Position numbers and translations under genes: made by a program
Assembly (NCBI GenBank): GCA_964470995.1
Contig: CAYYEP010000002.1
Location: 29,740-93,739, forward strand
Origin: an uncultured Candidatus Saccharibacteria bacterium
GTDB lineage: Bacteria > Patescibacteriota > Minisyncoccia > Minisyncoccales > UBA5738
Direction of reading: 5' to 3'
Length of the DNA stretch: 64,000 nt
Shown here: positions 1,748 through 63,879 of the stretch, piece after piece
Layout: each line of letters opens with the position of its first letter
Position numbering within the stretch: the first letter of the stretch is position 1
The notes under the pieces: model-generated
Databases searched by the model: none
What the model saw: the letters and a program-made list of their open reading frames with translations, nothing else
Told to the model about the DNA's origin: nothing

Positions 1748-3253
1748 TTAACGTCGCACTAAATCCAGAACGTATTTTTCGACCGGCGCCAGATCATCGG
1801 TCAGCACCGGCGCCCGAACCGCCCCCGCCATATCGATGCGAGTTTTAAGATAACCGTCTAAAAACGGATCCAAATTAGTCCATTGCGGCTCCTGCGTCGA
1901 TTTTAACGCAACCAGCACGTAATTGGAAACTTCATCGGCATCAGTTTCGGCGTTGGTCTTAAAAACATAAACCTGTCTAAACACTTGCTTATAGGTAGCA
2001 TACATTGAACGCAACATCTTGCTTTTGGCGCCCTCGCTCGAAGACCCGACATTCACCAATACCGCCCCGTCGCTATCCAGCGCCATATCGATTTTTCGCG
2101 CCGCTTCAACCGTCGCCAAATGAAACGGCGGCGAAATCGAATCGAAAGCGTCAATATAAACGCAATCGTACTTTGTTTTGTTTTGATTCAAAAAAACCCT
2201 GCCATCCGCGTTTATTATCGTCAACCGCGCGTCATCCTTCAAGTTAAAATATTTTTTTGAAATTTCGGTTAACCCGGGATCGATCTCAACCACATCGATA
2301 GTCGCCTCCGGATACGATTTTAAAAAACCTTTTGGAAAAGAATACGCGCCGCCGCCAATCATTAGCGTTTTTTTAATACCCGGATTAAAATGATCTCCCA
2401 ATAAAAAATATTTGCAATAAGGAGTAACCAACTCGTCGCTAGGATGCCCGCCGTATATATTCATCAGCGATTGGCCGCTAAACCGGTCGATACCCAGAAC
2501 CCGCGTTGTTAGCAAACTGTTCACCTTGATATCTTTCACCTCATAACGGGTATAGGCGGTATCGAATGTCATTACCGGCGGAGCCGCTGTACGCGACCCC
2601 AAAAAAAACAACCATAGAACGGCCGCCGCCAGCGTTGCCGCCTGCCACAACCGGAATTCCTTAAAATCAACCGCCATTGACGCCCCCGCCAGCGTTGCCG
2701 CCATCAAGACATTTATCTGTTCCGCCGGAAGAATACCGATCATCCAAAATCCGGAAATAAAAGTTCCAAAAATACTGCCGATGGTCGAAATTGCGTAAAG
2801 ATTTCCTACCTCCCGGCCGCTTTTCTGAATTTCATCGATCTTTAGGCGCGCCGCGTAAGGTGAAATGATCCCAAGTATCATATTGGGCACCGCAAAAAGC
2901 GCCAGCGCCGAAAATAACGCCCCCCAGCGGACATCGGTCGCGTTCGCGATCCAATCACCCGCGTCAAGAATCGCGCCTTTGCTCCCGGCCATCGCCAAAA
3001 CCGCCAAAGCCGCGCATAGTATCGTAAACGCCAGTATCCCCCGGCGGGGATTCAGCGTCGAAATCCTCCCTCCCAGCCAGTAGCCCAAACTTAAACTCCC
3101 CAGTATCACCCCAATGATACTGGACCAAACATAAAGCGAGGTGCCAAAATAAGGCGCCATGAAGCGCGTCCCCGCAAGTTCTAAAATCATCACTACCGCT
3201 CCGCAGATAAAAACCGCTATCTCCAGATTATATTTTTCGGTTGGTAATTTCAT
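1748..3253 (-). CDS. membrane-fused spermidine synthase-like protein
   Basis: 501 aa. A polytopic membrane N-terminal half of about 200 aa is fused to a spermidine-synthase-like Rossmann domain (MIGGGAYSFP, VVEIDP, VYIDAFD). Confidence 0.75.
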   Translation of the reverse strand: MKLPTEKYNLEIAVFICGAVVMILELAGTRFMAPYFGTSLYVWSSIIGVILGSLSLGYWLGGRISTLNPRRGILAFTILCAALAVLAMAGSKGAILDAGDWIANATDVRWGALFSALALFAVPNMILGIISPYAARLKIDEIQKSGREVGNLYAISTIGSIFGTFISGFWMIGILPAEQINVLMAATLAGASMAVDFKEFRLWQAATLAAAVLWLFFLGSRTAAPPVMTFDTAYTRYEVKDIKVNSLLTTRVLGIDRFSGQSLMNIYGGHPSDELVTPYCKYFLLGDHFNPGIKKTLMIGGGAYSFPKGFLKSYPEATIDVVEIDPGLTEISKKYFNLKDDARLTIINADGRVFLNQNKTKYDCVYIDAFDSISPPFHLATVEAARKIDMALDSDGAVLVNVGSSSEGAKSKMLRSMYATYKQVFRQVYVFKTNAETDADEVSNYVLVALKSTQEPQWTNLDPFLDGYLKTRIDMAGAVRAPVLTDDLAPVEKYVLDLVRR

Positions 3254-3663: not shown

Positions 3664-4383
3664 CTAATCCCACGAAACCGTCCCGTCGCCCGTTATCGGC
3701 ATCGGTTTCGACATCACTTCCGGCTCTTCGCGAACCGCCAACTCCCAAAACGCCTTCACCCGCGCGGCATTCTCGCGAAAAAAATTCCTCGTTCCAATCG
3801 CCGAATAAGTCCGCAAATCCGAAGGTATGCCGCTGGCTTCCAATCCCAACCCCCGCGCCAGATAAAGCGCCCGCGGCAAATGAAAACTTTGCGTCGCGAT
3901 GATCAGCGATTTAACCTTAAAAACATAACGCGCGTGATAAACGCTGTCGTAAGTGTCAAATCCAACGTAATCAAGGAAAACATCCTCTGCCGGAATTCCG
4001 TTTTCCAAAAAAAATTTTTTGGCGGCATCCACCTCATCGTAATTATCAGTACTGTAACCGCTCACCAGAATTTTATCCGCCTTGCCGGTATTGTAAACAT
4101 CCAAAGCCACCGATGCCCGATCGCGAAAAACATCTCCCATCTGGCCGCTGCTAAAAACCGACGCACCCAGCACCAAAACTGCTTGCGATTCCGGCAAATC
4201 GCCGGTATTCGTGTATATACCCCGCTTACCCGACCAGGCAACATAAACATCAGCCGCCACCAGCAAAAAAATCGCCCCAATAACAATCAACACCGTTACG
4301 GCCGCCGCCTTTTTTAATTTAGACGCCGCCGGTTTATCGCCGCCGGCAATCGCGATATTTTCATTTTTTTCGGTATTTTCCAT
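3664..4383 (-). CDS. SanA/YdcF (DUF218) family membrane-anchored protein
   Basis: 239 aa. N-terminal TM anchor, then a DUF218-like core (VLVLGASV, ILVSGYS, FLDYVGFDTYDS). Confidence 0.7.
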   Translation of the reverse strand: MENTEKNENIAIAGGDKPAASKLKKAAAVTVLIVIGAIFLLVAADVYVAWSGKRGIYTNTGDLPESQAVLVLGASVFSSGQMGDVFRDRASVALDVYNTGKADKILVSGYSTDNYDEVDAAKKFFLENGIPAEDVFLDYVGFDTYDSVYHARYVFKVKSLIIATQSFHLPRALYLARGLGLEASGIPSDLRTYSAIGTRNFFRENAARVKAFWELAVREEPEVMSKPMPITGDGTVSWD

Positions 4384-5062: not shown

Positions 5063-5203
5063 ATTGCCAAAATACTAACATAAAATAAAACGTTAATAAA
5101 CTGCCAGAGCAAAACCATAAAGTATTCCTATCGCGGCGCTAATTATTCGCGAGTCGATAAAAGGCGGGCTTAACGCCCGCCTTTCAGGTACCATAAAAAA
5201 TTT

Positions 5204-7228
5204 CTATATCGTTTTTCCGAGCAACCACACCGCCGCGGCGGACAATAGCAGGAAAACCGCCGAAAACAGTGCGACAAACAATAGATTATTCTTTGACCTG
5301 GGAACCAAACTCCAAGACGAATATCCTTTTGCCTTTAATTCATCAAACATTGCCTTGTCCGCCGGATCCACTTGGGCGGCGCGCCACCCGAAGAATGCCA
5401 GCACCAACGGCAAATATGCGAACGCCAAACCCAACACTGCCGATAACTGGTAAGGAATATAATAACTATAATATCCGAAATTAAAAAGATAAGAGATACC
5501 CGACAAGCCCGCTGTCATCGATAAAAACATCAGGATCGCCGCAAAAAACAGTATCTTGGCATTCCGGCGCTTTTTCCCGTAACCCTTGGCTCTGATCTTT
5601 TCAATAAGCGCACTGTCTTCTTTTTTTGCCGCCTCCCCGTTATCAGCGTGCATCGCCGCAACCGCCAGCCCCGCCAGCGTCAAGCAGTTCGCCAAACCCA
5701 ACAACACCAGCTTGCCCGGCTTTTTACGCAACCCCTTAAATAAGATCGATCCGGCAATCAGCGCCGCCCCCAGCGAACATAAAATCAGCAGAATCCCCGT
5801 TACGACCCACTTTCCTTCCGCAATCGCCCACGCCCACACCGCCTTAAGAGGCGCCTTGTCGCGAATCCAAAGATCTTCCGTTAAATATTTTGATGGCGCG
5901 TTTATCTCAATTTTGGTGTAGTTCAAGTCAGCACCCTCAAAAAAGTCGCTTTCTTTCCCCTCGGCGCTTAAATCAGAATACTCATAATAATCACTACTGT
6001 AATAACTGGTCTTTGTGAAATTATTAATCCCGTCATACACCCGCGGATCAACCAACCCGGCCACCTTGATCGTTATCGGTACGGTCTTACTCTCATACAC
6101 GCTGGTCGGCAGTAACGGAAAATAAATATTGTCAGTCGGGAAATAAACCGATATTCCTTTGACATTGTTCCTCTGCGGGTAATAATCCGGGTAATAACCG
6201 CCCGGAACCGAAGGCATTGTCGAAGGCAAAGCCTGAGCGGCCGATGTCTCTTGCGACCAGTCATCAATAAGCCCGGCTTCCCCTGAAGATATGGCAGTTC
6301 CTTCCAGCGACGAGTCGGTTTCTATCTCCGCAACCAGTTTATCAAGGGCCGCCGCACCCTCATCCGACCCCAAATAAGGTATCACCTGGTCGGCATTCAC
6401 CGTAATATCGCCGGTTAACGCGTCCTCGGCTACATCCAGTTGGGGATAATCAGTCTTCATTTCATACAATTTGCTCTGCACGCCGGGAATCCCAATATAC
6501 GCGTCCAGATTCTCTTCGATATAGGCTCTGCTGGGCCTGGTCCGCGAATTTATATTCTCCTTGGCGCCGTTATCGATCCAGGTTACCACGAACGAATAGT
6601 CTTTACCGATGTACGCATCCAATGCCGGGATCATATTCTTTTCGATCTTGAGTCCTTTTTTCTCGAAATAATCGTAAATGCCGTCCCCTGTTTTAGCGGT
6701 AATTAACTCCGACGACAAACCTTCCTTGTCCAAGTGTTCGTACACGGTCACATTGGCCTCTAACGGCCGCATATCGGAAGCCAAATTGCTTACCATACCC
6801 ATTTCATCCATCCCGCCGGGCATATATCCCCGATCATGGCCGTTCAACATAAAAAATAGCGGGTATATCTGCGAACCGAACAAAACGTCTTTGGCTTGAA
6901 CCAAACTGGCCTCCGCCGCGGAATTAATCTCCTTGCCCGTCATCAAAGGAAGATCGTCAATCACATCAATAACCACCTTGGAAGGATCCGCCGGCACCGG
7001 GAAAAGCCAAACCGCGTCATCATTCAAATTGTCGATTTTTACTCCCACAATCATCTTTTCCAACCCGTTTTGATAGTTGATAAACGCTTGTTGATCAGCC
7101 TCATCGGAATAATCCCATCCGCCCGAATATGGATCCGGATGAATAATCATCCCATCCGCCAGCACGCCTCCGATACCGGCAAATAAAAAAGCTGGCACCA
7201 GCAACCCCCAAAGCAACTTTTTTTTCAT
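5204..7228 (-). CDS. large membrane protein, unknown function
   Basis: The track ORF runs to 7312, but a signal-like MKKKLLWGLLVPAFLFAG begins at ATG 7228. About 420 aa are extracytoplasmic, followed by several C-terminal TM helices. No family assigned with confidence. Confidence 0.6.
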   Translation of the reverse strand: MKKKLLWGLLVPAFLFAGIGGVLADGMIIHPDPYSGGWDYSDEADQQAFINYQNGLEKMIVGVKIDNLNDDAVWLFPVPADPSKVVIDVIDDLPLMTGKEINSAAEASLVQAKDVLFGSQIYPLFFMLNGHDRGYMPGGMDEMGMVSNLASDMRPLEANVTVYEHLDKEGLSSELITAKTGDGIYDYFEKKGLKIEKNMIPALDAYIGKDYSFVVTWIDNGAKENINSRTRPSRAYIEENLDAYIGIPGVQSKLYEMKTDYPQLDVAEDALTGDITVNADQVIPYLGSDEGAAALDKLVAEIETDSSLEGTAISSGEAGLIDDWSQETSAAQALPSTMPSVPGGYYPDYYPQRNNVKGISVYFPTDNIYFPLLPTSVYESKTVPITIKVAGLVDPRVYDGINNFTKTSYYSSDYYEYSDLSAEGKESDFFEGADLNYTKIEINAPSKYLTEDLWIRDKAPLKAVWAWAIAEGKWVVTGILLILCSLGAALIAGSILFKGLRKKPGKLVLLGLANCLTLAGLAVAAMHADNGEAAKKEDSALIEKIRAKGYGKKRRNAKILFFAAILMFLSMTAGLSGISYLFNFGYYSYYIPYQLSAVLGLAFAYLPLVLAFFGWRAAQVDPADKAMFDELKAKGYSSWSLVPRSKNNLLFVALFSAVFLLLSAAAVWLLGKTI

Positions 7229-29308: not shown

Positions 29309-29362
29309 AAAATAAACTACCCCGGGGACAGAGCCCCGAAGTATTCTGGCAGATAAATAAAA
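29309..29362 (-). repeat. GC-rich repeat family A, minimal 54-bp copy (A1)
   Basis: Minus strand reads TTTATTTATCTGCCAGAATAC...CCCCGGGGTAGTTTATTTT, i.e. both family termini with the interior deleted. Confidence 0.7.
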
Positions 29363-29371
29363 AAGGACGGC

Positions 29372-30495: not shown

Positions 30496-30623
30496 AAATC
30501 TTAATACCCCGCGCGTTTGGCGGAGGATGAAAATTTTCCCCCGCAGTATGCGGGGGACGCTTGGAGCAAAGCGGAAAGCGGTTCAACCAAGATCCCGTAG
30601 CGTTTGTCCCGGGGAGATTCATT
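30496..30623 (+). repeat. GC-rich repeat family B, 128-bp copy (B1)
   Basis: AAATCTTAATACCCCGCGCGTTT...CCCCCGCAGTATGCGGGGGA...GGGGAGATTCATT. It aligns end to end with the reverse complement of 42524..42695, apart from a ~45-bp insertion there. Confidence 0.8.
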
Positions 30624-39752: not shown

Positions 39753-41549
39753 TTAATTTCGGTTTTTGATTTTGGCAAGGACTTCGGCGATAAAATCTTT
39801 TTTTGAAATTGTGCGGGCGGCTTTGGCGCCGCGGTCGCGAACAGATAGCGTTTCAGACTGCTTCTCTTTATCTCCAATCACCAAAACATAAGGAATCTTT
39901 TCGCCGGCGGCTTTGCGGATCTTGTTGCCCAGGGTCTCGTCGGCAGAATCAACTTCCGCGCGAATACCCGCTTGCCGAAACTCATCGGCCAGCTTTTGGC
40001 AAAAATCAACGTGCGCTTCGCCCACCGAAAGGATTTTAGCCTGCACCGGCGACAGCCAAACCGGGAACGCCCCAGCGTAATGCTCAATCAACAACCCGAT
40101 AAATCTTTCGAATGATCCAAACAGCGCGCGATGCAGCATATACGGCCGCTCTGGCTCGCCCTTTTGATTCACAAATGACATTCCAAATCTTTCCGGCAAA
40201 TTGAAATCAAACTGCAAGGTAGAACACTGCCATTCCCGGCCCAAAACATCCTTTATCTTGAAATCAAGCTTGGGCCCGTAAAACGCCGCCTCACCCAGCT
40301 CCTCTTTAAAGTTTAATCCACTTCCTTTGGCAACGTTGCGCAAAATATTTTCGGTAAATTCCCATCCTTCGTCATCACCGGCGTATTTTTCCTTTTTCTG
40401 CGGATCGCGCAACGATAAATAGACATTCACCGATTCCATCGGAAAGCCAAACGCCCCGTACACATAAGCGATAAAATCAATCACGCGCTTAAGCTCGTCC
40501 TCCACCTGCTCCTTGCGGCAAATAATATGCGCGTCATCCTGCGTAAAACCGCGCACGCGCGTCAATCCGGAAAGCTCGCCTTTTTTTTCATAACGGTAAA
40601 CCGTGCCGCACTCGGCCCAGCGCATCGGAAATTCCCGGTACGAATGCAAATCGTTTTTGTATATCCGCACGTGGAACGGGCAATTCATCGGCTTAAGCAG
40701 ATACTGCTCCGATTCTTCAAGTTTTTTACCGGTTTTCAAGTCCTCTAATGACTGGCCCACTTCCATTGCCGGATACATACTCGATGAATAAAACCCCCAA
40801 TGGCCGGATTTTTCCCACAACCTCCGATTGCCGATATGGGGAGTGCGTACCAATTCATAGCCCGCCTTCAAGTGAGCGTCATACCAAAAATCCTCGATCA
40901 CGCGCCAAAGCATCGCCCCATTGGGATGCCATAACGCCAATCCCAATCCCGCGTCTTCATCAATATGAAACAGGTCAAGCTCTTTTCCAAGTTTGCGATG
41001 ATCGCGCTTTTCCGCCTCCTCCAAATTTTTCAGATACGCTTCAAGTTCGGACTTGGAACTAAATGCCGCTCCATAAAGGCGAGTCAGCATTTTATTTTTT
41101 TCATTGCCTTTCCAATAAGCTCCGGCAATCTTTTGCAGTTTAAATCCGTCTATCGCCAAATCCTTGCCCGATTCAATATGCGGCCCGCGGCAAAGATCAA
41201 TAAAATCGCCGCTCCGGTAAACTAAAAACTTTTGTTCACCCTCGTTTTCCAAATCGGAAATAATCTCTAGTTTATATGGCTGGTCCGCAAAAATTTCCCG
41301 CGCCGCATCCAGCGAAACCTCGCGCCGCTCGAACGTCACCCCGCCGCCGATGATTCTTTTCATCTTAATCTCGATCTCTTTTAAATTTTCAGGCGCCAGA
41401 TTTTTTCCGGCCAGATCAAAATCATAATAAAAACCATCTTCGATCGCCGGACCAATACCAAACTTCGCCTCCGGATATAGGCTTTTTACCGCCGCCGCCA
41501 TTATATGCGCCAGCGAATGTCGCGCCGCCTCAATTTTATTATTTTCCAT
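39753..41549 (-). CDS. thrS: threonine--tRNA ligase (no N-terminal TGS domain)
   Basis: 598 aa. Editing-domain HSLAHIMA, class II core (YRYEKKGELSGLTRVRGFTQDDAHI), C-terminal anticodon-binding domain. Confidence 0.95.
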   Translation of the reverse strand: MENNKIEAARHSLAHIMAAAVKSLYPEAKFGIGPAIEDGFYYDFDLAGKNLAPENLKEIEIKMKRIIGGGVTFERREVSLDAAREIFADQPYKLEIISDLENEGEQKFLVYRSGDFIDLCRGPHIESGKDLAIDGFKLQKIAGAYWKGNEKNKMLTRLYGAAFSSKSELEAYLKNLEEAEKRDHRKLGKELDLFHIDEDAGLGLALWHPNGAMLWRVIEDFWYDAHLKAGYELVRTPHIGNRRLWEKSGHWGFYSSSMYPAMEVGQSLEDLKTGKKLEESEQYLLKPMNCPFHVRIYKNDLHSYREFPMRWAECGTVYRYEKKGELSGLTRVRGFTQDDAHIICRKEQVEDELKRVIDFIAYVYGAFGFPMESVNVYLSLRDPQKKEKYAGDDEGWEFTENILRNVAKGSGLNFKEELGEAAFYGPKLDFKIKDVLGREWQCSTLQFDFNLPERFGMSFVNQKGEPERPYMLHRALFGSFERFIGLLIEHYAGAFPVWLSPVQAKILSVGEAHVDFCQKLADEFRQAGIRAEVDSADETLGNKIRKAAGEKIPYVLVIGDKEKQSETLSVRDRGAKAARTISKKDFIAEVLAKIKNRN

Positions 41550-41556
41550 ATTTTTG

Positions 41557-41739
41557 TTTATTTATCTGCCGGAATACTCCGCCGGCTTTGCCACGGGGAT
41601 GAATGGCTGCCCGTAGCGTCGCGGCGGCTATAAATAAACTTTTCCTAACACGCGCGCAAGCGAAGCGGAAGGAATGCCTCGAGGCTCATCGTTTCGAATG
41701 CGAACCGCCCAGCGGTCAGCCCCGGAGTAGTTTATTTTA
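41557..41739 (+). repeat. GC-rich repeat family A, full-length 183-bp copy (A2) inside the thrS 5' UTR
   Basis: TTTATTTATCTGCCGGAATACTCCGCCGGCTTTGCCACGGGGATGAATGGCTGCCCGTAGCGTCGCGGCGGC...CCCCGGAGTAGTTTATTTTA. By eye about 85-90 percent identical to the reverse complement of 52969..53119 over the first ~115 bp. Confidence 0.8.
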
Positions 41740-41793
41740 AATACATTTTGCCGCAGCCTAACCTTATCGGATATCCACAAGATTAATCCTCCC

Positions 41794-42009
41794 AAAAAAC
41801 GCAAAACCTCGCCCAAACACTAAATCATCAAATTTAGTATTAGGGCGAGGTTTTTTGCTCTCGCGGTTCCACCTAAGTTACTCCCGCCTTGGCAAGAATA
41901 TCTCTTTTTGCCGTTTCAGCTTGGACCATTCAAGGTTCCCGTCTTTTATCCGGGATTGCGATTGGTAGCCGCAACGATTGCTTCCATGGCAATATTCTGT
42001 TATAGACTC
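41794..42009 (-). promoter_or_regulatory. T-box riboswitch leader (Thr) of thrS
   Basis: T-box core AGGUGGAACCGCG (41874-41862). The antiterminator has helix UUAGG/CCUAA, a 7-nt bulge UGGAACC and helix GCGAG/CUCGC. The competing terminator is CCUCGCCC (41850-41843) / GGGCGAGG (41814-41807) plus UUUUGCGUUUUUU. Thr codons sit at GAA-ACG-G (41914-41912) and ACC-A (41966-41964). Confidence 0.8.
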
Positions 42010-42038
42010 ATCTTAATTCCGCAAAACCAAGATGTCAA
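42010..42038 (-). promoter_or_regulatory. sigma-70-like promoter of the thrS leader
   Basis: TTGACA (42038-42033), 17-nt spacer, TAAGAT (42015-42010). Confidence 0.6.
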
Positions 42039-42073: not shown

Positions 42074-42105
42074 TAAAAAGCCCCGGAATCTTCAAAGATC
42101 GGGGC
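42074..42105 (-). terminator. rho-independent terminator
   Basis: GCCCCG...CGGGGC stem followed by TTTTT on the minus strand. The stop codon of the upstream ORF lies within the hairpin. Confidence 0.65.
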
Positions 42106-42436
42106 CATACAACACTAAAATTTTTTCCATAATCTTGGCGGGATCATTCTCTGCCGGATCAACCGGATAACACGTAAAACCCGCCCTCGCCAGCACATTC
42201 CTAATTATGGCGCAATCTATAAATTCGGAACCGATAATCAACGCCGTCCGCATACCCACCATGTACACCCGGTAACAGCCCGGAATTTCAAAGATCGCCC
42301 GCGCCAATTCGTTCGCTATCGGGTTTTCGGCAAAATCCCTCTGCCTGGTATCCCGGTAAATCGTAACATATAAGTAATCGTTAACGGCTTTACTAATATC
42401 TCCCGTAATTATTTTCCTGGTTTTTCTTTCCGCCAA
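42092..42436 (-). CDS. hypothetical protein
   Basis: The track ORF reaches 42520. A TTG at 42436 is preceded by GGAGGTGAGCT, giving 114 aa. No family recognised. Confidence 0.45.
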   Translation of the reverse strand: MAERKTRKIITGDISKAVNDYLYVTIYRDTRQRDFAENPIANELARAIFEIPGCYRVYMVGMRTALIIGSEFIDCAIIRNVLARAGFTCYPVDPAENDPAKIMEKILVLYGPDL

Positions 42437-42523
42437 AAGCTCACCTCCAATTCGACATATTTCAATGATAATATCGCCAATGCGGCATCTTGATTCCCCG
42501 AACAAACCCGATATCCGCAAACT

Positions 42524-42695
42524 AATGAATCTCCCCGGCCTTACGCCACGGGGTATTTTCGTTGAACCGCCTTCCGCTTTGCTCCAGGCATCCCCCGCAT
42601 ACTGCGGGGGAAAATCTTCATCCCCACGCTTCCTCCCGATTACGGGAGGCGCCCCGCCGCAGTCGCGGCGGAAAACGCGCGGGGTATTAAGATTT
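42524..42695 (-). repeat. GC-rich repeat family B, 172-bp copy (B2)
   Basis: The reverse complement aligns with 30496..30623 at both termini and the core. It carries an extra ~45-bp module (CCGCCGCGACTGCGGCGG, CCTCCCGTAATCGGGAGG). Confidence 0.8.
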
Positions 42696-42715: not shown

Positions 42716-44554
42716 CTAGCGCCCTAATTCATGGCACATTTCCAAAAAAGTCGCGTTGCTCCAAGCCTGGTTTGGGCATCCCGCCGGCGCATAGCCGCTT
42801 GCCGAACTGATCTCCGAAGCGCACCCAACCGCGCTATGCCACAAAATATCATTTGCGCTTGCCTCAAAAATTCTTTCGATATAATTCGCGTACCCGGATT
42901 TATCCAAACGAACCATTGATACCGCCGCCAGGTTGTTTACCCAAAACCACGAATCACCGTTATGATATGCCGCCGGATCGATTCCGGCATCATCTCCTTT
43001 AAAATCAGGGTCTTTTTTATCCAAAGTACTCAATCCGCCCCAATCAAGCCATAAAGCCTTTAACGCCGCATCGAAAACCCCTCGCCACTCGTTTTTCTTC
43101 AACAGCTGCGGATAAATATAAGCCGCCAAAAAAATATTCGGCCGGTGACAAAATTCCGCCTTACCTTCCAAATCAATCCTGTCGGCCAGATTGCCATTAT
43201 GGAAAAATTTTTTTCTCACGGCCGCCGCGGTCTTTTCTTCCAAATCGGAATAATACGATCGCTTCTTCATATCGAACGCGATTGCTCCCGCCAATCCATA
43301 CATATTCAACCGTAAGGCCTGAATCTCAACCGCCGCGCCGCCGCGATCCAGGCTATCCATCCATGTCATCTTTGGCTTATGAACCGCCAAAAAATTTTTT
43401 GTATCTTCGGCCAAAAGCCGCTCAATTGCTCTTTCAAGCCCAAAAAATATCCTCTCAATTTCGTTTATATTCGCCTTCTCGTTTTTTATAAATTCCGCCG
43501 CGCGCAAAAAAAGCCATCCAACCGCATCTGCCGAATCCTTGTACTCATAGCCTTCGGCCGCCAAATCATCTATTTGCCGCCAGAGTATCTCTTTGGCCGC
43601 CTTTCGGTCGCAAAATGACATCCCCCTCAATGACACCGCTTCATCCCGCCGCCATACCTGAAAAAACCAAGGCAGGCCGGCGCGCAACGCCTCACGCCCG
43701 CCCTTTTTTACGCGCATCATTCCCAAAGCATTGGCGGCCGCTTCCCTCGCCGGACACATCCCGCCCGCCTTCTTTACGGCCGATAAATTTTTATTCAAAT
43801 TTTCTGTATCCGGCGGCAAAGCCTTTTTTTTGGCGCGGCCTGCGGCGCGCCACGCCTCCCGGGCCGTTCTAATTGCTTCTTTTCTATTAACCCCGGCCCC
43901 GATCGCAATCCTCGATACCGCTAGTTCCACAGGCTTAAAAACCCACCTTTCGGCCGGCTCGTCTTGCCGCAATCGGTCGTTTTTGTAACTATGTTTTATC
44001 CATTCTTCGTTTGTTTCAACCATTCCAAAATCGCCCCAAAGTGCGACAAAAAAATCCGGCAAAAAACCTCCCGCCTGTTTAAAACTTACCATTACCGCGC
44101 CGTCCTCCATCCATACCCGGTAATTCCGACCGAACTCCGGCGAATCATACGCGTCTTTAATATCAAAAAAAATTTCTATCGGCGAAAACTTTTCCAGTTC
44201 GTAAAACAGGCTGTTGGACCCCAACAATCGAAAAGTCTCTCCAAATTCCGTCCCGGCCCTTTTAACGTTATCGCTTCCCGCCGCTATACTCTCTATGGCC
44301 CCGCGGCCGCACGGCCGGATATCTTCAATAATTTTTACGAAACGCCCGCCGTCCAAAGATAAAAACCAGCCCTGATAACGGCTGGCGATTTTACCGCCCG
44401 TCCATAAAAAACTGCCGTCCTTTGCCAGCATCAGGCTGGCATCTTCCGTATCAACGGTTTTTATTAACTGCCGGTTGTTATCGAAATTATGGATGATTTC
44501 CACGTAATAAACAAAAAATATTAAAACTAACCCGCTCGGACAGAACAAAATCAA
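42716..44554 (-). CDS. amylo-alpha-1,6-glucosidase / glycogen debranching enzyme-like
   Basis: C-terminal (alpha/alpha)6-type pattern (AYHNGDSWFWVNN, NQAWSNATF). Start uncertain: TTG 44554, or GTG/ATG downstream. Confidence 0.75.
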   Translation of the reverse strand: MILFCPSGLVLIFFVYYVEIIHNFDNNRQLIKTVDTEDASLMLAKDGSFLWTGGKIASRYQGWFLSLDGGRFVKIIEDIRPCGRGAIESIAAGSDNVKRAGTEFGETFRLLGSNSLFYELEKFSPIEIFFDIKDAYDSPEFGRNYRVWMEDGAVMVSFKQAGGFLPDFFVALWGDFGMVETNEEWIKHSYKNDRLRQDEPAERWVFKPVELAVSRIAIGAGVNRKEAIRTAREAWRAAGRAKKKALPPDTENLNKNLSAVKKAGGMCPAREAAANALGMMRVKKGGREALRAGLPWFFQVWRRDEAVSLRGMSFCDRKAAKEILWRQIDDLAAEGYEYKDSADAVGWLFLRAAEFIKNEKANINEIERIFFGLERAIERLLAEDTKNFLAVHKPKMTWMDSLDRGGAAVEIQALRLNMYGLAGAIAFDMKKRSYYSDLEEKTAAAVRKKFFHNGNLADRIDLEGKAEFCHRPNIFLAAYIYPQLLKKNEWRGVFDAALKALWLDWGGLSTLDKKDPDFKGDDAGIDPAAYHNGDSWFWVNNLAAVSMVRLDKSGYANYIERIFEASANDILWHSAVGCASEISSASGYAPAGCPNQAWSNATFLEMCHELGR

Positions 44555-44576
44555 TCAAAAAGAATCATTTAAGAAA

Positions 44577-46394
44577 CTAGTTTCTATTAGTTTCCGAATT
44601 TATCGCTTTATTATGCGCGCTGACATAGTTCTCAACCAGCCTTTCCCAATCAAAATTCTCCACCAGTTCCCGCGCGTTAATCTTGTTTTCGACGCGCTCG
44701 TGCCCGGACAACGCCGCATAATCGTAAAGCATCGCCCCTAACTGCGCCACAATGTCTGGTTCTTGCTTGCCAAAATTATTAACAATAAAAATTCCCGGGC
44801 AACGGCTGTCGCGCGGCAAACGCGACAAATACCGGCCCAAACCGCTTAAATCGCTGGTAATTGATGCCACCCCCTCCGCCGCCGCCTCGATTGGCGTGTA
44901 ACCCCAGGGCTCGTAATATGACGGAAACACCCCCAAGTGGCACCCCTGGATTGCTTCCTGCATACTCAAATTAAGCAAACGATCGTTTTCGCTTAAATAA
45001 CTGGGATAAAAAACCACCTTCACCCGGTCATCTTTGGAATTAGCCAGCCCCTGTTCGGCCAAAGCGCTCATAATCGCATCGTTGCGATAGCCTAGCTCAT
45101 GCGTACAAACCGGAGGATTACCGCTTCTCTTTGCCTTGCGCAATTTACGATCCAGTTCCCGGTGCGCTTCTTCACTAAAAATATCAGTACTCTTCAAATC
45201 CGAATCGGACACCAGCGAATACATAAAACTTTCCGTTATCGCCGCCGAATTTTCATCCACGAATTGTTTGATATCGTAATAATTGCCGCGGCCTTCGGTT
45301 AAATCGCTCTTAATACCGGTAGTCTTCGACGGAATCCACAAAAACGCCACAATCGTTTTGGGACTCCTCTCCTGCTTCAGCCGGCGATTCAAGTCTCCCA
45401 GCGCCTTGATAAAAACATCTGCTCCCTTGGCATGAAATTCATACCTTGCCATCATAAAATAAAAAAGCGTGTTCTTTAGGTCGAATGTGTAATAAGGAAA
45501 AAAATTATAAAAAATGAACTCCCGGATACGGCCGCGCTGGATGCGATGTTTGATTGCCGCTTCTTCAAAACTCAAATATCCGCCCACGTCCAAACCGTTG
45601 GGTAAAAAAATATCGGGCGTACGGCCCAAAAAATACTGGCATTCCACCCCGGTAATTTCGCTCACGGTCGTAAACACCGTCGCTTCATTGGCAGCCGCCT
45701 TTTCCAGCAAATGTTTTGCCTGAATATGATAGTTATAGGCCTCCTTTTGCGCATCGATACGCTCAATATCCGCGTAAAGATCGATATTATTAAACGCCAA
45801 ACTTCTTCCCAGTGTCGTGGCATGAGTGGTAAATATCGAAGAAATGTTGCTCTGGCAAAATTTTTTGGCGAATAAAAGCGCTGAACCCGCCAGCCATTCG
45901 TGGCAATGGATCGCCATCTTTTTTTCCGCAAAAACCCGCTGTAATTGTTCAATCAATTTTCCCGCCGCCCATCCCCACACCACCGGCTCGTCAAATTCAA
46001 ATCCCGACTCCATCGAATCGATCTTGTACGAATTCCAAAGCTCGAATTTATAATGATTTATCCCCGGCCATAAACTGGAAAAATCAATCAAAATAACCTG
46101 CGGCTCACCTTCGATCAGCCACCTTCCGAAATGGCATTTGATTCCCTGATTCTCCAGATGCGAGAAAACCTCCTCCAAGCGTCCCTCGGGCATCTTTTCC
46201 TCAAACTGATATTTTGAATTCTGGGAAAGATAGGGACCCACCAATATATAGCCTTGGCGGTAGCGCTTCACCGTTTGCGCCGCTTTTGTCGCCAAAACGG
46301 TATTGATCCCGCCAATCTTGTTGCAAACCTCCCAGGAAATTTCCAGGAGCATATCTGCCTGTGGTACCAACGTTGTTTTTTTAATTTCAGCCAT
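44577..46394 (-). CDS. glycogen synthase, eukaryote-type (GT3 family)
   Basis: EISWEVCNKIGGINTVLATKA and HCHEWLAG match the N-terminal signatures of animal/fungal glycogen synthases. ATG at 46394 within track ORF 44577..46409. Confidence 0.8.
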   Translation of the reverse strand: MAEIKKTTLVPQADMLLEISWEVCNKIGGINTVLATKAAQTVKRYRQGYILVGPYLSQNSKYQFEEKMPEGRLEEVFSHLENQGIKCHFGRWLIEGEPQVILIDFSSLWPGINHYKFELWNSYKIDSMESGFEFDEPVVWGWAAGKLIEQLQRVFAEKKMAIHCHEWLAGSALLFAKKFCQSNISSIFTTHATTLGRSLAFNNIDLYADIERIDAQKEAYNYHIQAKHLLEKAAANEATVFTTVSEITGVECQYFLGRTPDIFLPNGLDVGGYLSFEEAAIKHRIQRGRIREFIFYNFFPYYTFDLKNTLFYFMMARYEFHAKGADVFIKALGDLNRRLKQERSPKTIVAFLWIPSKTTGIKSDLTEGRGNYYDIKQFVDENSAAITESFMYSLVSDSDLKSTDIFSEEAHRELDRKLRKAKRSGNPPVCTHELGYRNDAIMSALAEQGLANSKDDRVKVVFYPSYLSENDRLLNLSMQEAIQGCHLGVFPSYYEPWGYTPIEAAAEGVASITSDLSGLGRYLSRLPRDSRCPGIFIVNNFGKQEPDIVAQLGAMLYDYAALSGHERVENKINARELVENFDWERLVENYVSAHNKAINSETNRN

Positions 46395-46617
46395 ATCTAA
46401 AAATAGCAAATTGTAAAATTAAGTTCTTTTAAAAATACGCGCCGGCGAAAACAATCTTCGATGCCAATCAAAACACAAACAGTCCGACGCGCTTTATTTG
46501 GTAAAACTCCGGATTGCTCGCCCGACTATGGCAACCTCAACAGATATCGCAATTCCCGCAAATATTTGCGCCGCTTTGTATTCTCCTTGGCAAACGCCCG
46601 GTTCCAATGAATATTTT

Positions 46618-46905
46618 TTACCAGTATTTGGACACTTCAAGCTTGCTCGCCACTCTCTTTGCCGCTGTCTTCGGACTTTTCACCTTCCGCAAAGACAATC
46701 CCAGCTGCCTGTCGCCGAAAACCCCCTCCACCCAGCTGGCAAAATCATTCTTTTCCGCGGTCACATGGTAATTCCAAACTTCAGCATCCATTGTATCCAA
46801 GGCGTCTTTAAGCTCTTTTAAATTTTTCAGCGTCCGCCCGTTGGATAGCCAAAAACTTTTTTCCGGCTCGGTATCTTCAATTATCGATGATTTATTTAAT
46901 TCCAT
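46618..46905 (-). CDS. small conserved-looking protein embedded in the glucan cluster
   Basis: 95 aa. FWLSNGRTLKNLKELKDAL...WNYHV...NDFASWVEGVFGD. Family not assigned. Confidence 0.5.
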   Translation of the reverse strand: MELNKSSIIEDTEPEKSFWLSNGRTLKNLKELKDALDTMDAEVWNYHVTAEKNDFASWVEGVFGDRQLGLSLRKVKSPKTAAKRVASKLEVSKYW

Positions 46906-46931
46906 TTTATTCGAAAATGAAGGATAAAGAT

Positions 46932-48158
46932 TTACTCGCCGACCTTTAAAATTATTTTTTGATTTTCCGATTTTATTTTTTCAAGCCTTATCTTGAGGTC
47001 ATCGAAAATATTCATAAACGCGATAAATGATTCGTAAGGCGTGTCATAAGGATTAAAATATTTATGCACATCCCCGTCCGAAAACCACTTCGTACACATA
47101 TAGTAAAAATGGTCGCTAGTCTGGAGTTTGCGCCAACGATCGATCAGGCCGTCGTCGGCGGTTTCCTTGATCTCTTTCTCCAGCGAATATATCTTTTCCA
47201 GCGCCGCGGCTTGCATTTTGTTTCCCAGCCACGCGCTCAAGTCGCGCTCCATATCAGCCCAGGAAACCAACCGCCAAAAATCAAGCTCTCCCGCGGGCTC
47301 GCAATTCTTCGCCAGCCGCGACGGCGTGGTAAAAGTATTATGCGGGGTTTCCAATGCCTGCCACACGAACGCTTCAAAAAACTTGAAAATTCCGGTCTCT
47401 TCCCACTGGTGTTCGCCAAACGTCTCATAATCCATGAAAAGATTCAATGTTTGCGCTGCCGAATCAATATTCAAAAGATTAACCCAGCTCACATATTTTT
47501 CCGCGGTCAGCGGCCATTCCTTCCAATCGCGGTTGGAAAAACGGAAGCCGACATCATCGCTCAACCGGTAATTTCTCACTAAAAGCCTTAATGGCAAATC
47601 TTTGGCGGTATATAAAAAATTCGGCGATCGCCACCCCAATATTTCATCCCAGCCCTCTGCCAGCATTCCGGTAAAACCCATCTGATGAACCTCGCGGGCT
47701 ATATCATTATTATACACCAGCTCGGTATTGCGGAAAAACCGCGGCTCATATCCGAAAAGCCGGCCAAACATCTTATTCTGCTTTTCAACCTGCGACCGGA
47801 ATTCATTCTTCGAATAAACCGACGCCAGCGAATGATAATAGGTTTCAGAAACCAATTCGCAACATCCCGTACTCACCAGGTCATTAAAACTTTTCAGCAC
47901 CTCCGGATAATCCGCCTCCAGCTGCTCCAGCAATATCCCGGTAATACTCATACTCACCTTGAATTTACCCTGCGTATTTCGGATCAGCTTCAAAAGCATC
48001 CTATTGGTCGGAAGATAACTCTTACGCACAACCTTATCCAAAATCTGTCGGTTTTTCTCATTGTCAAAATAATCGTTATGCATACCCACGTCAAAAACCG
48101 AAAGCTTTTTCAAGCGCCGCGGCTGGTGCGTGTGTAAATATAAGCATATTGCCGGCAT
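46932..48158 (-). CDS. glycoside hydrolase family 57 protein
   Basis: LYLHTHQPRR, SETYYH and FRNTEL motifs. ATG at 48158 within track ORF 46932..48206. Confidence 0.8.
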   Translation of the reverse strand: MPAICLYLHTHQPRRLKKLSVFDVGMHNDYFDNEKNRQILDKVVRKSYLPTNRMLLKLIRNTQGKFKVSMSITGILLEQLEADYPEVLKSFNDLVSTGCCELVSETYYHSLASVYSKNEFRSQVEKQNKMFGRLFGYEPRFFRNTELVYNNDIAREVHQMGFTGMLAEGWDEILGWRSPNFLYTAKDLPLRLLVRNYRLSDDVGFRFSNRDWKEWPLTAEKYVSWVNLLNIDSAAQTLNLFMDYETFGEHQWEETGIFKFFEAFVWQALETPHNTFTTPSRLAKNCEPAGELDFWRLVSWADMERDLSAWLGNKMQAAALEKIYSLEKEIKETADDGLIDRWRKLQTSDHFYYMCTKWFSDGDVHKYFNPYDTPYESFIAFMNIFDDLKIRLEKIKSENQKIILKVGE

Positions 48159-48248
48159 CGTATTTAAATTCCAATTACCAAATTCCAAACTCGAATCAAA
48201 TTGCAATAACCAAAATTATAATATCCCAAAAAATACATTCTCATCATT

Positions 48249-48363
48249 TTTATTTATCTGCCAGAATACCCCGCCGGCTTTGCCGCGGGGATGAATGGCT
48301 GCCCGTATCGTAAGCGGAGCGGAAGAAATATCTTTGGTCTCTGCCCCAGGGCAGTTTATTTAT
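48249..48363 (+). repeat. GC-rich repeat family A, 115-bp internally deleted copy (A3)
   Basis: TTTATTTATCTGCCAGAATACCCCGCCGGCTTTGCCGCGGGGATGAATGGCTGCCCGTA joined to CGTAAGCGGAGCGGAAGAAATA...CCCCAGGGCAGTTTATTTATA. It lacks the ~40-bp central module of A2 and A4. Confidence 0.8.
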
Positions 48364-48413
48364 AATTTTGATATTGTTTGTCATTTAATGCTTGGTAATT
48401 GGAAATTAACCAA

Positions 48414-49679
48414 TTAAGCTCTCAATACTTTGTGGTAAACCGTAACACATTTTTGCGCCGACCTCTTCCAGCTGAATTTATGCAATTCCGAAGATCCGTT
48501 ATAATGTAAAGTTTCTCGCAGCTCGGGGTATCTCACCACCGCTATAATCTTGTTCACGATCTGATCCACATCCCAAAAATCAACTTTCAAACAGTGCGAG
48601 ATCATCTCTCCCACACCCGACTGGCGCGAAACCAAAATGGGAGTGCCATTCGCCAGCGCCTCCAAAGAAGTAATCCCAAACGGTTCGGATACCGACGGCA
48701 TCACATAAAGATCGGCCATCTGGTATAATCGGTTAAGCTCTTCTCCTCTCACAAATCCCGCGAATATTACCCTGTCGGCAATCCCCAAAGACGCCGCCTC
48801 TTCGATCAGCCATCGCTCCATATCTCCCGAACCGGAGAAAACAAACATCACATCTTTATCCATTTTTGAAACTCTCTGCGCCGCCCGCAAAAAATAATCC
48901 GGTCCCTTCTGGAAAGTAAGCCTACCCACGAAAAGCACTATTTTTTTCCCGTTCTTTTTTAATCCCGAAACATTCGCGGCAAATCTCGCTTGGTACTGCG
49001 TTCGATTCACCGCATTAGGAACTACTTCAATCTTTTTCGGGTTAACGCCGTATTTTTCCGTGATCCGCCGCTTCGTATAATCACTTACCGCCACCACAGC
49101 GTCCGACTCCTCCATCCCCCGTTTTTCAATGGCGCAAATGTCCTTATTTAGGCAATTGCCATTAACCCGGTCATACTCCAGCGCGTGCACCTGAAACACC
49201 AAAGGCTTGCCGGAAACTTTTTTTGCTTCCAATCCCGCCGGAAGGCTCAACCAATCATGTACATGGATAACATCAAAATTTTCGTTCATCGCGATGCCCC
49301 GCGCCTCGGAAGCGTAGCGCATCACTTCCCCCACCAAGTCCCGCCTCCAAACTCCGCGGCCACCGGAAATATATTTATCGGCGCATAGCTCCTGGTCCGA
49401 AACATAGCTTTCCGAAGTTAAGTAAGGCGACAATGGCGAATCGACTTCGATCATTTCCACGCCGTTTGACCCTTTCACCTTGCGCATCCAAGCCTTTCCG
49501 TAAACAAATCTGCATCCATCACACAAATGATCCATTTTTTTAGGCAAAACGAAAGTAATTTCGGCCCCCAAAGACGACAAACCGCCCACCAATCCTTCGC
49601 AGGCAACCCCCAATCCACCCGAGTTATAAGGCGGAAATTCCCAGCCAAACATTAAAATTTTAAGCGGTTCCAGCTTCAT
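48414..49679 (-). CDS. GT-B glycosyltransferase (GT4/GT5, glycogen-synthase-like)
   Basis: N-terminal ILMFGWEFPPYNSGGLGVAC. C-terminal SVSEPFGITSLEALANG. Confidence 0.8.
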   Translation of the reverse strand: MKLEPLKILMFGWEFPPYNSGGLGVACEGLVGGLSSLGAEITFVLPKKMDHLCDGCRFVYGKAWMRKVKGSNGVEMIEVDSPLSPYLTSESYVSDQELCADKYISGGRGVWRRDLVGEVMRYASEARGIAMNENFDVIHVHDWLSLPAGLEAKKVSGKPLVFQVHALEYDRVNGNCLNKDICAIEKRGMEESDAVVAVSDYTKRRITEKYGVNPKKIEVVPNAVNRTQYQARFAANVSGLKKNGKKIVLFVGRLTFQKGPDYFLRAAQRVSKMDKDVMFVFSGSGDMERWLIEEAASLGIADRVIFAGFVRGEELNRLYQMADLYVMPSVSEPFGITSLEALANGTPILVSRQSGVGEMISHCLKVDFWDVDQIVNKIIAVVRYPELRETLHYNGSSELHKFSWKRSAQKCVTVYHKVLRA

Positions 49680-52968: not shown

Positions 52969-53119
52969 AATAAAATACCCCGGGCAAAGCCCCGGGGTAT
53001 TTCTTTCGCTTCGCTTACGCTGCGCGTTAGGAAAAGTAAGTTTTTAGCCGCCGCGACGCTGAGGGCAGCCATTCATCCCCGCGGCAAAGCCGGCGGGGTA
53101 TTCTGGCAGATAGATAAAA
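52969..53119 (-). repeat. GC-rich repeat family A, 151-bp copy (A4)
   Basis: The reverse complement reads TTTATCTATCTGCCAGAATACCCCGCCGGCTTTGCCGCGGGGATGAATGGCTGCC...ATACCCCGGGGCTTTGCCCGGGGTATTTTATT. Confidence 0.8.
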
Positions 53120-53744: not shown

Positions 53745-55394
<1,650 letters not shown>

Positions 55395-55542
55395 TTAAGT
55401 TCTAAATTCCAAACTCCAAATTCCAAACAAATTATAATTACCAAAATTATAATGTTAAAAACGGATTCTGTTTGCAGTATTTGGCGATTATAATTTGGAT
55501 ATTATTTGTGATTTGGCGATTGGTGCTTAGGATTTTAAGCAA

Positions 55543-62898: not shown

Positions 62899-63879
62899 AT
62901 GAGGATTTTTAGCGGCATAAGGCCTACGGGTGAAATCCATCTGGGAAATTACCTGGGCGCAATAAAACAATGGATCGATCTGCAAAACCGGGCCGAATGT
63001 ATTTTTTGCGTGGTTGACCTGCACGCGATCACCACGCCTTACAAATCCCAAAAATTGCAAGAACAGATCAAAGAACTTTCGGTCGCTTATCTGGCCGCCG
63101 GTCTTGATCCCGACAAATGCATTTTGTTCGTTCAATCAGCAGTTAAAGAACACGCCGAACTGGCCTGGCTTCTAAGCACCGTCACGCCCATGGGCGAACT
63201 TAAACGCATGACCCAGTTCAAAGACAAGTCCAAACAACACCCCGAATACGTGAATGCCGGCCTGTTCAATTATCCGTTGCTAATGGCCGCCGACATTCTA
63301 CTTTACAAAACCGACGCCGTGCCCATTGGCAAAGACCAACAGCAGCACGTTGAATTGACCCGCGCGATCGCGCGCTATTTCAACAACCAGTTCGGACAAA
63401 CGTTCAAATATCCCAAAGAGCTCCTTTTGGAAACCGGCGCCAAAATCATGTCGCTTGCCGAACCGGAAAAAAAAATGTCCAAAACCGGCAATCAAAAAGG
63501 CTGTATCAATATTTTCGAAGAACCCGAATCTATCCGCAAAAAAATTGCCGGTGCCGTCACCGACACGGGCAAGGAAATTGTATTCGACCAAAAGAAAAAA
63601 CCCGGCATTTCCAACCTGCTGGCCATCCAGTCACTGATCACCAATATGCCGATAATGCGGCTGGAACAGGAAATGAAAGGCAAAAGCTACTCCGAGTTTA
63701 AAAAAATGGTCGCGCAAACCCTTATCGACTATCTGGAACCGATGCGCCGTAAACGCAACGAGCTGCTAACCCGCGACGTTTACATCAACGACATTTTAAA
63801 ACGCGGCGCGGTACGCGCCCAGACCATCGCCATCCAAACGATACGCGAAGTAAAAACCGCCATGGGATTGGCATCATAA
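62899..63879 (+). CDS. trpS: tryptophan--tRNA ligase
   Basis: Class I motifs GEIHLGNY (HIGH-like) and KMSKT (KMSKS). 326 aa. Confidence 0.95.
   Translation: MRIFSGIRPTGEIHLGNYLGAIKQWIDLQNRAECIFCVVDLHAITTPYKSQKLQEQIKELSVAYLAAGLDPDKCILFVQSAVKEHAELAWLLSTVTPMGELKRMTQFKDKSKQHPEYVNAGLFNYPLLMAADILLYKTDAVPIGKDQQQHVELTRAIARYFNNQFGQTFKYPKELLLETGAKIMSLAEPEKKMSKTGNQKGCINIFEEPESIRKKIAGAVTDTGKEIVFDQKKKPGISNLLAIQSLITNMPIMRLEQEMKGKSYSEFKKMVAQTLIDYLEPMRRKRNELLTRDVYINDILKRGAVRAQTIAIQTIREVKTAMGLAS

Follow-up and report, generated by a model that had tools for sequence, protein, structure and literature searches.

T-box leaders, which sense tRNA, are regarded as a mainly Gram-positive device, and two architectures form the closest described systems for the element considered here. 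Class I T-boxes, represented by the Rfam model RF00230 and by Bacillus subtilis tyrS, thrS, and glyQS, display the specifier codon in a side bulge of a long Stem I and act by regulated read-through of a terminator. Only in a short or 'ultrashort' Stem I does the specifier occupy the apical loop, and such a stem is found in the translational ileS T-boxes of Actinobacteria, such as those of Mycobacterium tuberculosis and Nocardia farcinica (PMC7583486, PMC11297988), here referred to as class II. The leader described here lies upstream of the threonyl-tRNA synthetase gene thrS in a 64,000-nucleotide stretch (the window; positions 29,740 to 93,739 of contig CAYYEP010000002.1, assembly GCA_964470995.1) from an uncultured bacterium of the Patescibacteria, or candidate phyla radiation (CPR), and all of its elements are read on the minus strand. 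The leader is very probably a tRNA-Thr-sensing T-box that acts by transcription attenuation and belongs to a compact class recurring upstream of thrS across Patescibacteria. It also appears reasonably likely, at a lower level of confidence, that this is a new Patescibacteria-wide T-box class, in which a decoding module of ~85 nt uses an anticodon-loop-like hairpin within a GAUUG/CUAA four-way junction to capture tRNA-Thr by loop-loop pairing, coupled to a terminator and without a Stem I elbow platform, K-turn, Stem II S-turn, or IIA/B pseudoknot.

The half of the leader that would contact the tRNA discriminator is of standard T-box design, with its core, AGGUGGAACCGCG, at 41874-41862 on the minus strand. 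A search based on threonyl-tRNA synthetase (ThrRS), taking one genome per species, yielded 80 related loci, all from metagenome-assembled genomes (MAGs) of Patescibacteria/CPR, the best of which encodes a ThrRS 86% identical to that of the window. The exact 12-mer core GGUGGAACC(G/A)CG occurs upstream of thrS in 25 of these 80 loci, a recurrence far beyond chance, and in ~746 kb of CPR DNA searched with the core motif, the true T-box cores were all upstream of thrS. This half comprises the following elements:

41902-41904, minus strand: RAG purines (GAG), just 5' of Stem III
41882-41897, minus strand: Stem III, UCUUGC/GCGGGA with loop CAAG, aligning to Stem III of RF00230
41840-41876, minus strand: antiterminator, with helix A1 (UUAGG/CCUAA) pairing 41876-41872 with 41844-41840
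41871-41865, minus strand: antiterminator bulge UGGAACC, of which UGGA occupies 41871-41868
41864-41860 paired with 41849-41845, minus strand: antiterminator helix A2, GCGAG/CUCGC
41794-41850, minus strand: intrinsic terminator, hairpin CCUCGCCC...GGGCGAGG at 41850-41807 followed by U tracts at 41806-41803 and 41799-41794

An AGGGUGGNACCGCG-like T-box sequence with a 7-nt UGGNACC-type bulge between helices A1 and A2 is therefore present, and UGGAACC is invariant in 25 of 25 labelled leaders, in which the two A residues preceding A1 are also invariant or nearly so. Helix A1 covaries, including a compensated change of GG to GA with CC to UC in loci L021 and L031, and the antiterminator aligns to RF00230 with high posterior probability. 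The Stem III helix covaries as well, with 91-93% of cells paired in the labelled set and in an independent metagenomic set, and the RAG motif occurs in the linker between P1 and Stem III in 25/25 labelled and 67/75 metagenomic members; in solved T-box structures, these purines read the uncharged tRNA 3' end (PMC11297988). The 5' arm of the terminator (41850-41843) consists of the 3' strands of A2 and A1, making the two structures mutually exclusive. The terminator hairpin is predicted at -29.7 kcal/mol versus -8.6 kcal/mol for the antiterminator alone, a stability gap that is normal for a switch needing tRNA to stabilize its antiterminator. In nearly all relatives, the leader is likewise followed by an overlapping terminator that takes its 5' arm from the 3' side of the antiterminator. 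With class I T-boxes, the leader thus shares the T-box sequence, the UGGNACC bulge, RAG, Stem III, the exclusive terminator, regulation by read-through, and a specifier that matches the synthetase and ends in C at its third position. The original prediction, made from the window alone, had placed a promoter, core, antiterminator, and overlapping terminator on the minus strand, and all four are found there; its reading of the leader as a thrS T-box acting by transcription attenuation is borne out by the core, the antiterminator, the exclusive terminator, and the recurrence before thrS in relatives.

The half that would read the anticodon is built differently, as a small four-way junction with these elements:

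41908-41992, minus strand: decoding domain, closed by helix P1, UUGCC (41992-41988) paired with GGCAA (41912-41908)
41982-41980 paired with 41920-41918, minus strand: helix P1a, AGC/GCU, which together with P1 closes the four-way junction
41975-41979, minus strand: 5' junction strand AAUCG, for which the class consensus is GAUUG
41956-41974, minus strand: SL1 specifier hairpin, stem UUGCGG/UCGCAA with loop CUACCAA at 41968-41962 and codon ACC at 41966-41964
41938-41954, minus strand: SL2 hairpin, CCCG/CGGG with loop GAUAAAAGA
41925-41936, minus strand: SL3 mini-hairpin, ACC/GGU with loop UUGAAU
41921-41924, minus strand: 3' junction strand CCAA, for which the class consensus is CUAA

Almost all leaders contain a recurrent hairpin with a 5-7 bp stem of locus-specific sequence and the loop C-U-ACC-A-A; GAUUG stands before it, and CUAA stands 3' of it, flanked by a short helix that pairs with the bases just before GAUUG. 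Across the full set of leaders, MAFFT could align no more than the specifier hairpin and the T-box core, and a covariance model (R1) was seeded from an alignment of the window and five close relatives with a hand-written structure comprising P1, P1a, SL1, SL2, SL3, Stem III, A1, and A2. R1 gives 170 bits on the window leader, which is its second-best match, and finds 31 leaders upstream of thrS in the 80 loci, some of them without the exact 12-mer; within the window it finds no other match, the next one having E = 0.54. The order of elements is uniform in the class: P1a and GAUUG come first, then SL1 (6 bp, loop CUACCAA), SL2, and SL3 (~3 bp) with single-nucleotide linkers between them, and last CUAA and the P1a return strand.

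This structure is strongly supported by covariation. Standard pairs fill 93.6% of pair cells in the 25 best labelled leaders, versus 64% in shuffled alignments and 44-47% after a one-column slide; changes on both sides occur in 35 of 37 pairs, and every helix covaries. P1 and P1a covary in the labelled set and in the independent set. All six pairs of SL1 covary, with 96-98% of cells paired, and the SL2 helix covaries with 93-99% of cells paired. The 3-bp SL3 helix covaries with ~92% of cells paired, this helix being short and situated in a region where the alignment is fitted to the model. The loops of SL2 and SL3 differ in length and sequence across members. By comparison, the junction strands are nearly fixed: the AUUG of the 5' strand is nearly invariant (22-25/25), preceded by G in ~20/25 and by A in most others, and the 3' strand has a nearly invariant C and AA, separated by U in most members and less often by C. 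The three short hairpins noted in the original prediction are thus present, and what was called an atypical Stem I turns out to be the real, covarying architecture of a class.

Further evidence comes from a metagenome scan whose pattern fixed ATTG, the loop frame CT-NNN-AA, and GGTGG-N-ACCGCG while leaving the codon and the discriminator-pairing base free. Of 120 matches to this codon-agnostic pattern, 80 carry ACC, and in every one of these a 5-6 bp hairpin forms around the loop; UGGA is present in 79 of them and UGGG in one. A ThrRS gene (40-65% identical to that of the window) follows 78 of the 80, and in the other two the contig ends too soon. By contrast, 38 of the 40 non-ACC matches form no hairpin (at most 4 pairs), and many have UGGU or UGGC; they look like ordinary T-boxes matched by chance. 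R1 matches all 80 ACC loci with 28.6-83.3 bits. In the 75 distinct leaders among them, none of which was used to derive the structure, 94.0% of cells are paired versus 43-44% after sliding, and the covariation score is 0.641 versus 0.177 in shuffles. In the more distant metagenomic members, ThrRS is 40-47% identical to that of the window, and the class may reach beyond Patescibacteria.

The specifier that emerges is the ACC in the SL1 loop, which is invariant in 25/25 labelled and 80/80 metagenomic leaders, or 105 in all, is followed by a purine (A), and stands upstream of ThrRS in 78/80 metagenomic and all labelled members. It obeys the 'C rule' for the third specifier position of T-boxes (PMC7583486). 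The original prediction had listed ACC-A as the second of two candidate specifiers, in a 9-nt loop; the codon holds, while the loop has 7 nt (CUACCAA, 41968-41962) and is closed by a G-U pair. In size and flanking residues, this C-U-ACC-A-A loop corresponds to a tRNA anticodon loop (C32-U33 ... A37-A38).

Several class members show features of their own. In L094, L104, L109, L122, L175, and L198, the ThrRS alignment begins only at about residue 157-183 of the window protein, at a point 37-143 nt after the leader (553 nt in L198), which suggests ThrRS forms without the N-terminal (editing/SAD) region under the same T-box class. L175 (leader at 5185-5349, minus strand) is also the sole member with UGGG in place of UGGA, for which wobble pairing with U73 is still possible, and its 3' junction strand is aberrant (CAGA). 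Loci L016, L021, L022, L039, L066, and others combine a Patescibacteria-type ThrRS and this T-box with the title 'uncultured Gammaproteobacteria' or 'Saccharibacteria'; these titles are probably automatic MAG mislabels.

Comparison with the established models shows where the two halves part. An Rfam scan of the window at curated gathering thresholds reports no T-box. A permissive search with RF00230, the check proposed with the original prediction, stays below the gathering score of 93 and returns a weak match of 29.5 bits (E = 1.5e-4 in an 851-nt region and 0.011 in the whole window). Its posterior probability is high only at model positions ~149-219, corresponding to Stem III and the antiterminator, and the Stem I and Stem II of the model fall on the promoter with low posterior probability. 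Since only the 3' half aligns, the leader is a standard T-box in its discriminator half but not in its decoding half. Among 20 other members, RF00230 scores 26.8-52.8 bits in 16 and finds no match in four.

In contrast to class I, the CPR leaders have no long Stem I and carry the specifier in an apical hairpin loop rather than a side bulge; the class consensus contains no K-turn, S-turn internal loop, or AG bulge/distal loop, the last being the double T-loop platform for the tRNA elbow. They likewise show no conserved Stem II S-turn, IIA/B pseudoknot, or F-box, and a closing helix gathers their decoding hairpins into a four-way junction. The label 'canonical' in the original prediction therefore does not apply to the decoding half, which is unlike RF00230 and from which a long Stem I and the conserved K-turn, AG bulge/distal loop, S-turn, and F-box are all missing. 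The internal loop of P1 in the window (AUGGA/GAAAC) was examined as a possible K-turn, a reading rejected for lack of conservation because the helix is continuous there in L001 and L004.

With the class II ileS T-boxes, the CPR leaders share a short Stem I, an apical specifier followed by a purine, the lack of a tRNA-elbow platform, and the same discriminator core; SL1, with its 6-bp covarying stem and 7-nt loop, is an apical-specifier hairpin of this kind. However, the ileS class sequesters the Shine-Dalgarno sequence, whereas the CPR class has a terminator. The regions before the inspected thrS ATGs are A/T-rich without an evident Shine-Dalgarno sequence, and the terminator lies 17-257 nt upstream. 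The ileS class also relies on a K-turn, a long Stem II with an S-turn, and the IIA/B pseudoknot; SL2 and SL3, in comparison, have 3-4 bp and variable loops, with no conservation of AGUA/GAA or an F-box. In their place, the CPR class has two short hairpins and the conserved junction strands GAUUG and CUAA, and a three-dimensional equivalence of the two arrangements is possible. The GAU and UAA of these strands may resemble the 'UAA/GAN' internal-loop motif, a likeness that serves only as a lead. The two classes also differ in amino acid (Ile versus Thr) and in phylum (Actinobacteria versus Patescibacteria). Taken together, the CPR class lacks the Stem I features of class I and the Stem II, pseudoknot, and Shine-Dalgarno features of class II, while possessing every feature of the discriminator domain. 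Searches of the full-text literature, whose coverage was incomplete so that a prior report is possible, found no paper joining T-boxes with Patescibacteria or candidate phyla, in line with the original remark that its author was not aware of any characterized in CPR-type genomes; under the same incomplete coverage, they found no transcriptional T-box with an apical-loop specifier. The compact thrS T-box design is apparently undescribed so far.

The genomic setting is consistent with an autonomous regulatory unit, framed by the following features:

42074-42106, minus strand: terminator-like hairpin (GGCCCCG...CGGGGCC) and U-run (UUUUU), closing the upstream open reading frame (ORF; 42092-42520)
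42010-42038, minus strand: sigma-70-like promoter, TTGACA (42038-42033), a 17-nt spacer, and TAAGAT (42015-42010)
39753-41549, minus strand: thrS, 598 aa, with Pfam domains tRNA_SAD, tRNA-synt_2b, and HGTP_anticodon
38734-39750, minus strand: asparaginase gene (Pfam Asparaginase), starting 2 nt past the thrS stop

The upstream hairpin (42106-42074) folds at -15 kcal/mol (z = -2.1), and its position implies that the thrS leader is a transcription unit of its own. The promoter matches the consensus at 10 of 12 positions and is the sole strong sigma-70-like site found in the region by a consensus scan, from which transcription is inferred to start near 42003; a promoter-like site (at least 9/12) lies directly before P1 in 24 of 29 labelled relatives. 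The leader extends over ~200 nt and is followed by the strong terminator and then by a 257-nt spacer up to the ATG. The asparaginase gene is probably co-transcribed with thrS and hence under T-box control. An asparaginase gene is also the thrS neighbour in both Logan contigs (L081 and L082).

A dedicated promoter starts the leader at helix P1, and the comparative data show the RNA folding into the four-way junction of P1/P1a, SL1, SL2, and SL3. In the proposed mechanism, the ACC codon would be read by tRNA-Thr(GGU), as expected under general bacterial decoding rules, and the GGU anticodon is predicted to pair with ACC in a loop-loop contact. tRNAs with complementary anticodons form loop-loop 'kissing' complexes of two 7-nt anticodon loops. 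Given the anticodon-loop size and flanks of the specifier loop and its complementarity to GGU, the contact is probably a loop-loop helix of this type, with three stacked base pairs; the analogy is drawn from sequence alone, and one partner here differs in being an mRNA leader within a junction. The obvious candidates for orienting SL1 and buttressing the codon-anticodon helix are the junction strands, together with SL2 and SL3. The uncharged 3' end, U73-C-C-A, would then pair with UGGA and stabilize the weak antiterminator, such that RNA polymerase reads through into thrS and probably into the asparaginase gene; charged tRNA would be unable to lock the antiterminator, and the terminator would form.

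On the tRNA side, the window encodes only tRNA-Ser and tRNA-Leu, and no tRNA-Thr gene was found in the 80 related genome loci. The 120 metagenomic loci contain a single one, tRNA-Thr(UGU) in L160, a locus with an ACC/UGGA T-box. This gene ends in ...AGGUGGC-U-CCA, with discriminator U73 and an encoded CCA, and so agrees with the original deduction of U73 from the UGGA bulge.

A number of observations weigh against this interpretation and call for caution. The RF00230 score is far below the gathering threshold. Fitting of the covariation alignments to the model inflates the support for the short SL2 and SL3, whereas SL1, A1, A2, and P1a are aligned essentially gap-free and are secure. The junction strands of the window, AAUCG and CCAA, depart from the consensus in a combination present in no other class member, and single-sequence folding of the window decoding domain favours another fold by 3.4 kcal/mol. 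The U73 match rests on one UGU isoacceptor from an organism other than that of the window. A module without a tRNA-elbow platform or S-turn would need to achieve tight tRNA binding by other means. Finally, the 257-nt spacer, which includes a repeat, could hold an unrecognized bypass promoter.

The repeat in this spacer is the following element:

41556-41737, minus strand: repeat resembling a miniature inverted-repeat transposable element (MITE), with its body at 41729-41564 and 8-bp direct repeats AAATAAAC at 41737-41730 and 41563-41556

It replaces native sequence and ends 6 nt before the thrS ATG. A copy at 52988-53118 (plus strand) is in opposite orientation and 86% identical over 131 nt; another at ~48350-48249 (minus strand) is 94% identical over 63 nt and has a 39-nt internal deletion; and a solo end lies at 29320-29364. 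Within 64 kb there are thus three long copies and this solo end, intergenic and in both orientations, and the copies adjoin gene starts or gene ends; one of them lies between glycoside hydrolase family 57 (GH57) and glycosyltransferase genes. The thrS loci fetched from the 80 related genomes do not contain the repeat, a single 28-nt match being at chance level, and the spacer between terminator and ATG measures 17-155 nt in relatives versus 257 nt in the window, a difference of 100-240 nt, in agreement with the original view that a 183-bp repeat was inserted between the terminator and the ATG. Two independent public assemblies encoding an identical ThrRS both break at the same base within the repeat, 40 nt upstream of the ATG, which indicates that the insertion is present in those two samples too; such breaks are the usual effect of multi-copy repeats on short-read assemblies.

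Like MITEs and repetitive extragenic palindromic (REP)-like repeats of bacteria, the element is small (~170-190 nt), non-coding, GC-rich, hairpin-forming, multi-copy, and intergenic, with short A/T-rich direct repeats. It differs from them in its very short terminal inverted repeats (CTGCC...GGCAG only), and no cognate transposase was identified for it. AAATAAAC flanks the thrS copy at 8/8 positions, and similar A/T-rich flanks occur at the other copies, so the direct repeats may belong to the element itself and a target-site duplication is not proven; 'MITE-like' is a description based on sequence rather than a proven class. Several copies end just before an ATG, which raised the idea of a 5'-untranslated-region regulatory element; it was rejected because the copies at 29320 and 52988 adjoin gene 3' ends in opposite orientation.

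The insertion bears on the rival explanation that survives best, in which the T-box is intact in sequence yet bypassed or disabled, with a promoter or the GC-rich hairpins of the repeat governing thrS and the switch persisting as a relic. The long spacer, the replacement of native sequence almost to the ATG, and the off-consensus junction strands of the window are all compatible with this explanation. Against it, the leader is the second-best match to the class model and has every invariant position. A promoter inside the repeat was looked for and rejected, as a consensus scan found no site of at least 9/12 within it, the only other match overlapping the start codon. The spacer with the repeat is not unusually structured (z = -0.65), and the same ThrRS allele carries the insertion in two other samples, which indicates that it is tolerated. 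Loss of control by bypass is considered improbable. Judging from sequence, the insertion would lengthen the read-through transcript and leave the switch intact, and the tRNA-Thr-sensing T-box is probably functional in the window genome because every invariant position is retained. The spacer past the terminator appears to tolerate ~180 nt of foreign structured RNA.

A canonical class I T-box is much less probable still; here tRNA-Thr(CGU) would read GAA-ACG-G at the 3' side of the basal helix, and the hairpins would represent a degenerate Stem I. In its favour, specifiers classically occur as GAA-NNN-purine on the 3' strand, ACG encodes Thr, and RF00230 does give a weak full-length match; the original prediction had listed this site first. 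However, ACG is not conserved: the five closest relatives read UUUUUUGG, CUUUAAGG, and UUUGCCGG at this position, and in L001 and L004 the helix runs continuously through the region. The hairpin-loop ACC is invariant across the 105 leaders, a third-position G would break the C rule (PMC7583486), and the 5' part of the RF00230 alignment falls on the promoter with low posterior probability. The E. coli thrS translational operator offers another parallel, since it too is a thrS leader with an anticodon-arm-like hairpin and feedback control of ThrRS synthesis; it shows an anticodon and binds protein, whereas the CPR leader shows a codon, has a T-box discriminator, and is predicted to bind tRNA. 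That SL1 is likewise an anticodon-arm mimic bound by ThrRS for protein autoregulation is the least credible of the readings, for although a 7-nt C-U-NNN-A-A loop on a 6-bp stem in a thrS leader has the format of an anticodon loop, it shows the codon ACC instead of a Thr anticodon (NGU) and is thus complementary to tRNA-Thr rather than a mimic of it, it is always coupled to a full T-box discriminator with UGGA bulge and overlapping terminator, and no Shine-Dalgarno sequence lies beside the hairpin to be occluded.

Other repeats occur in the window and at related loci. A second family consists of 72-nt inverted copies at 30525-30596 and 42552-42623, which are 90% complementary and 12 kb apart, one of them between genes, directly upstream of the ORF before the thrS leader. 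Low-complexity intergenic repeats of CCAAA/TCCAAA type are found at 48163-48222 and 55394-55453 (60 nt, 82% identical), and in the closest relative, L001, a 'aaaatccaaaatccaaaatccaaat' tract resembling them fills the spacer between terminator and thrS (~3900-3985); repeats seem to land in this spacer habitually. Between the ORFs 647-1450 and 1748-3253, the region 1422-1749 contains three copies of a 46-nt unit (74-91% identical) spaced ~140 nt apart.

The remainder of the window includes a glycogen/starch-type cluster upstream of thrS (42716-49679, minus strand), with genes for a GDE_C amylo-alpha-1,6-glucosidase, a glycoside hydrolase of family 57, and a GT4/starch-synthase-like glycosyltransferase. 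A class I W/Y synthetase gene at 62899-63879 shows no T-box signal, as had been stated for trpS. The minus strand carries nearly all long ORFs up to ~55 kb, and the GC skew is negative over the whole window (-0.09 to -0.30). Several large ORFs (702, 600, 344, 330, and 316 aa) lack a Pfam match, as is typical of CPR genomes.

A set of tRNA-sensing switches of CPR bacteria has probably gone unannotated, because the Rfam scores of class members are far under the threshold and because TBDB, whose class I entries stem largely from the Rfam model and related collections, has searched its class II, short-Stem-I model only in Actinobacteria (PMC7778990). If the proposed class is real, it would add a third architecture by which T-boxes decode tRNA and would be the first riboswitch class characteristic of CPR bacteria. 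A natural class without recognizable versions of the K-turn, S-turn, and pseudoknot would also show the minimal requirements for decoding, in a compact module small enough for direct structural and binding work. The compact T-box is, moreover, a possible native part for expression control in CPR organisms. CPR genomes are short of known regulators, and a conserved sensor of amino-acid starvation on thrS would provide a rare concrete handle on their physiology.

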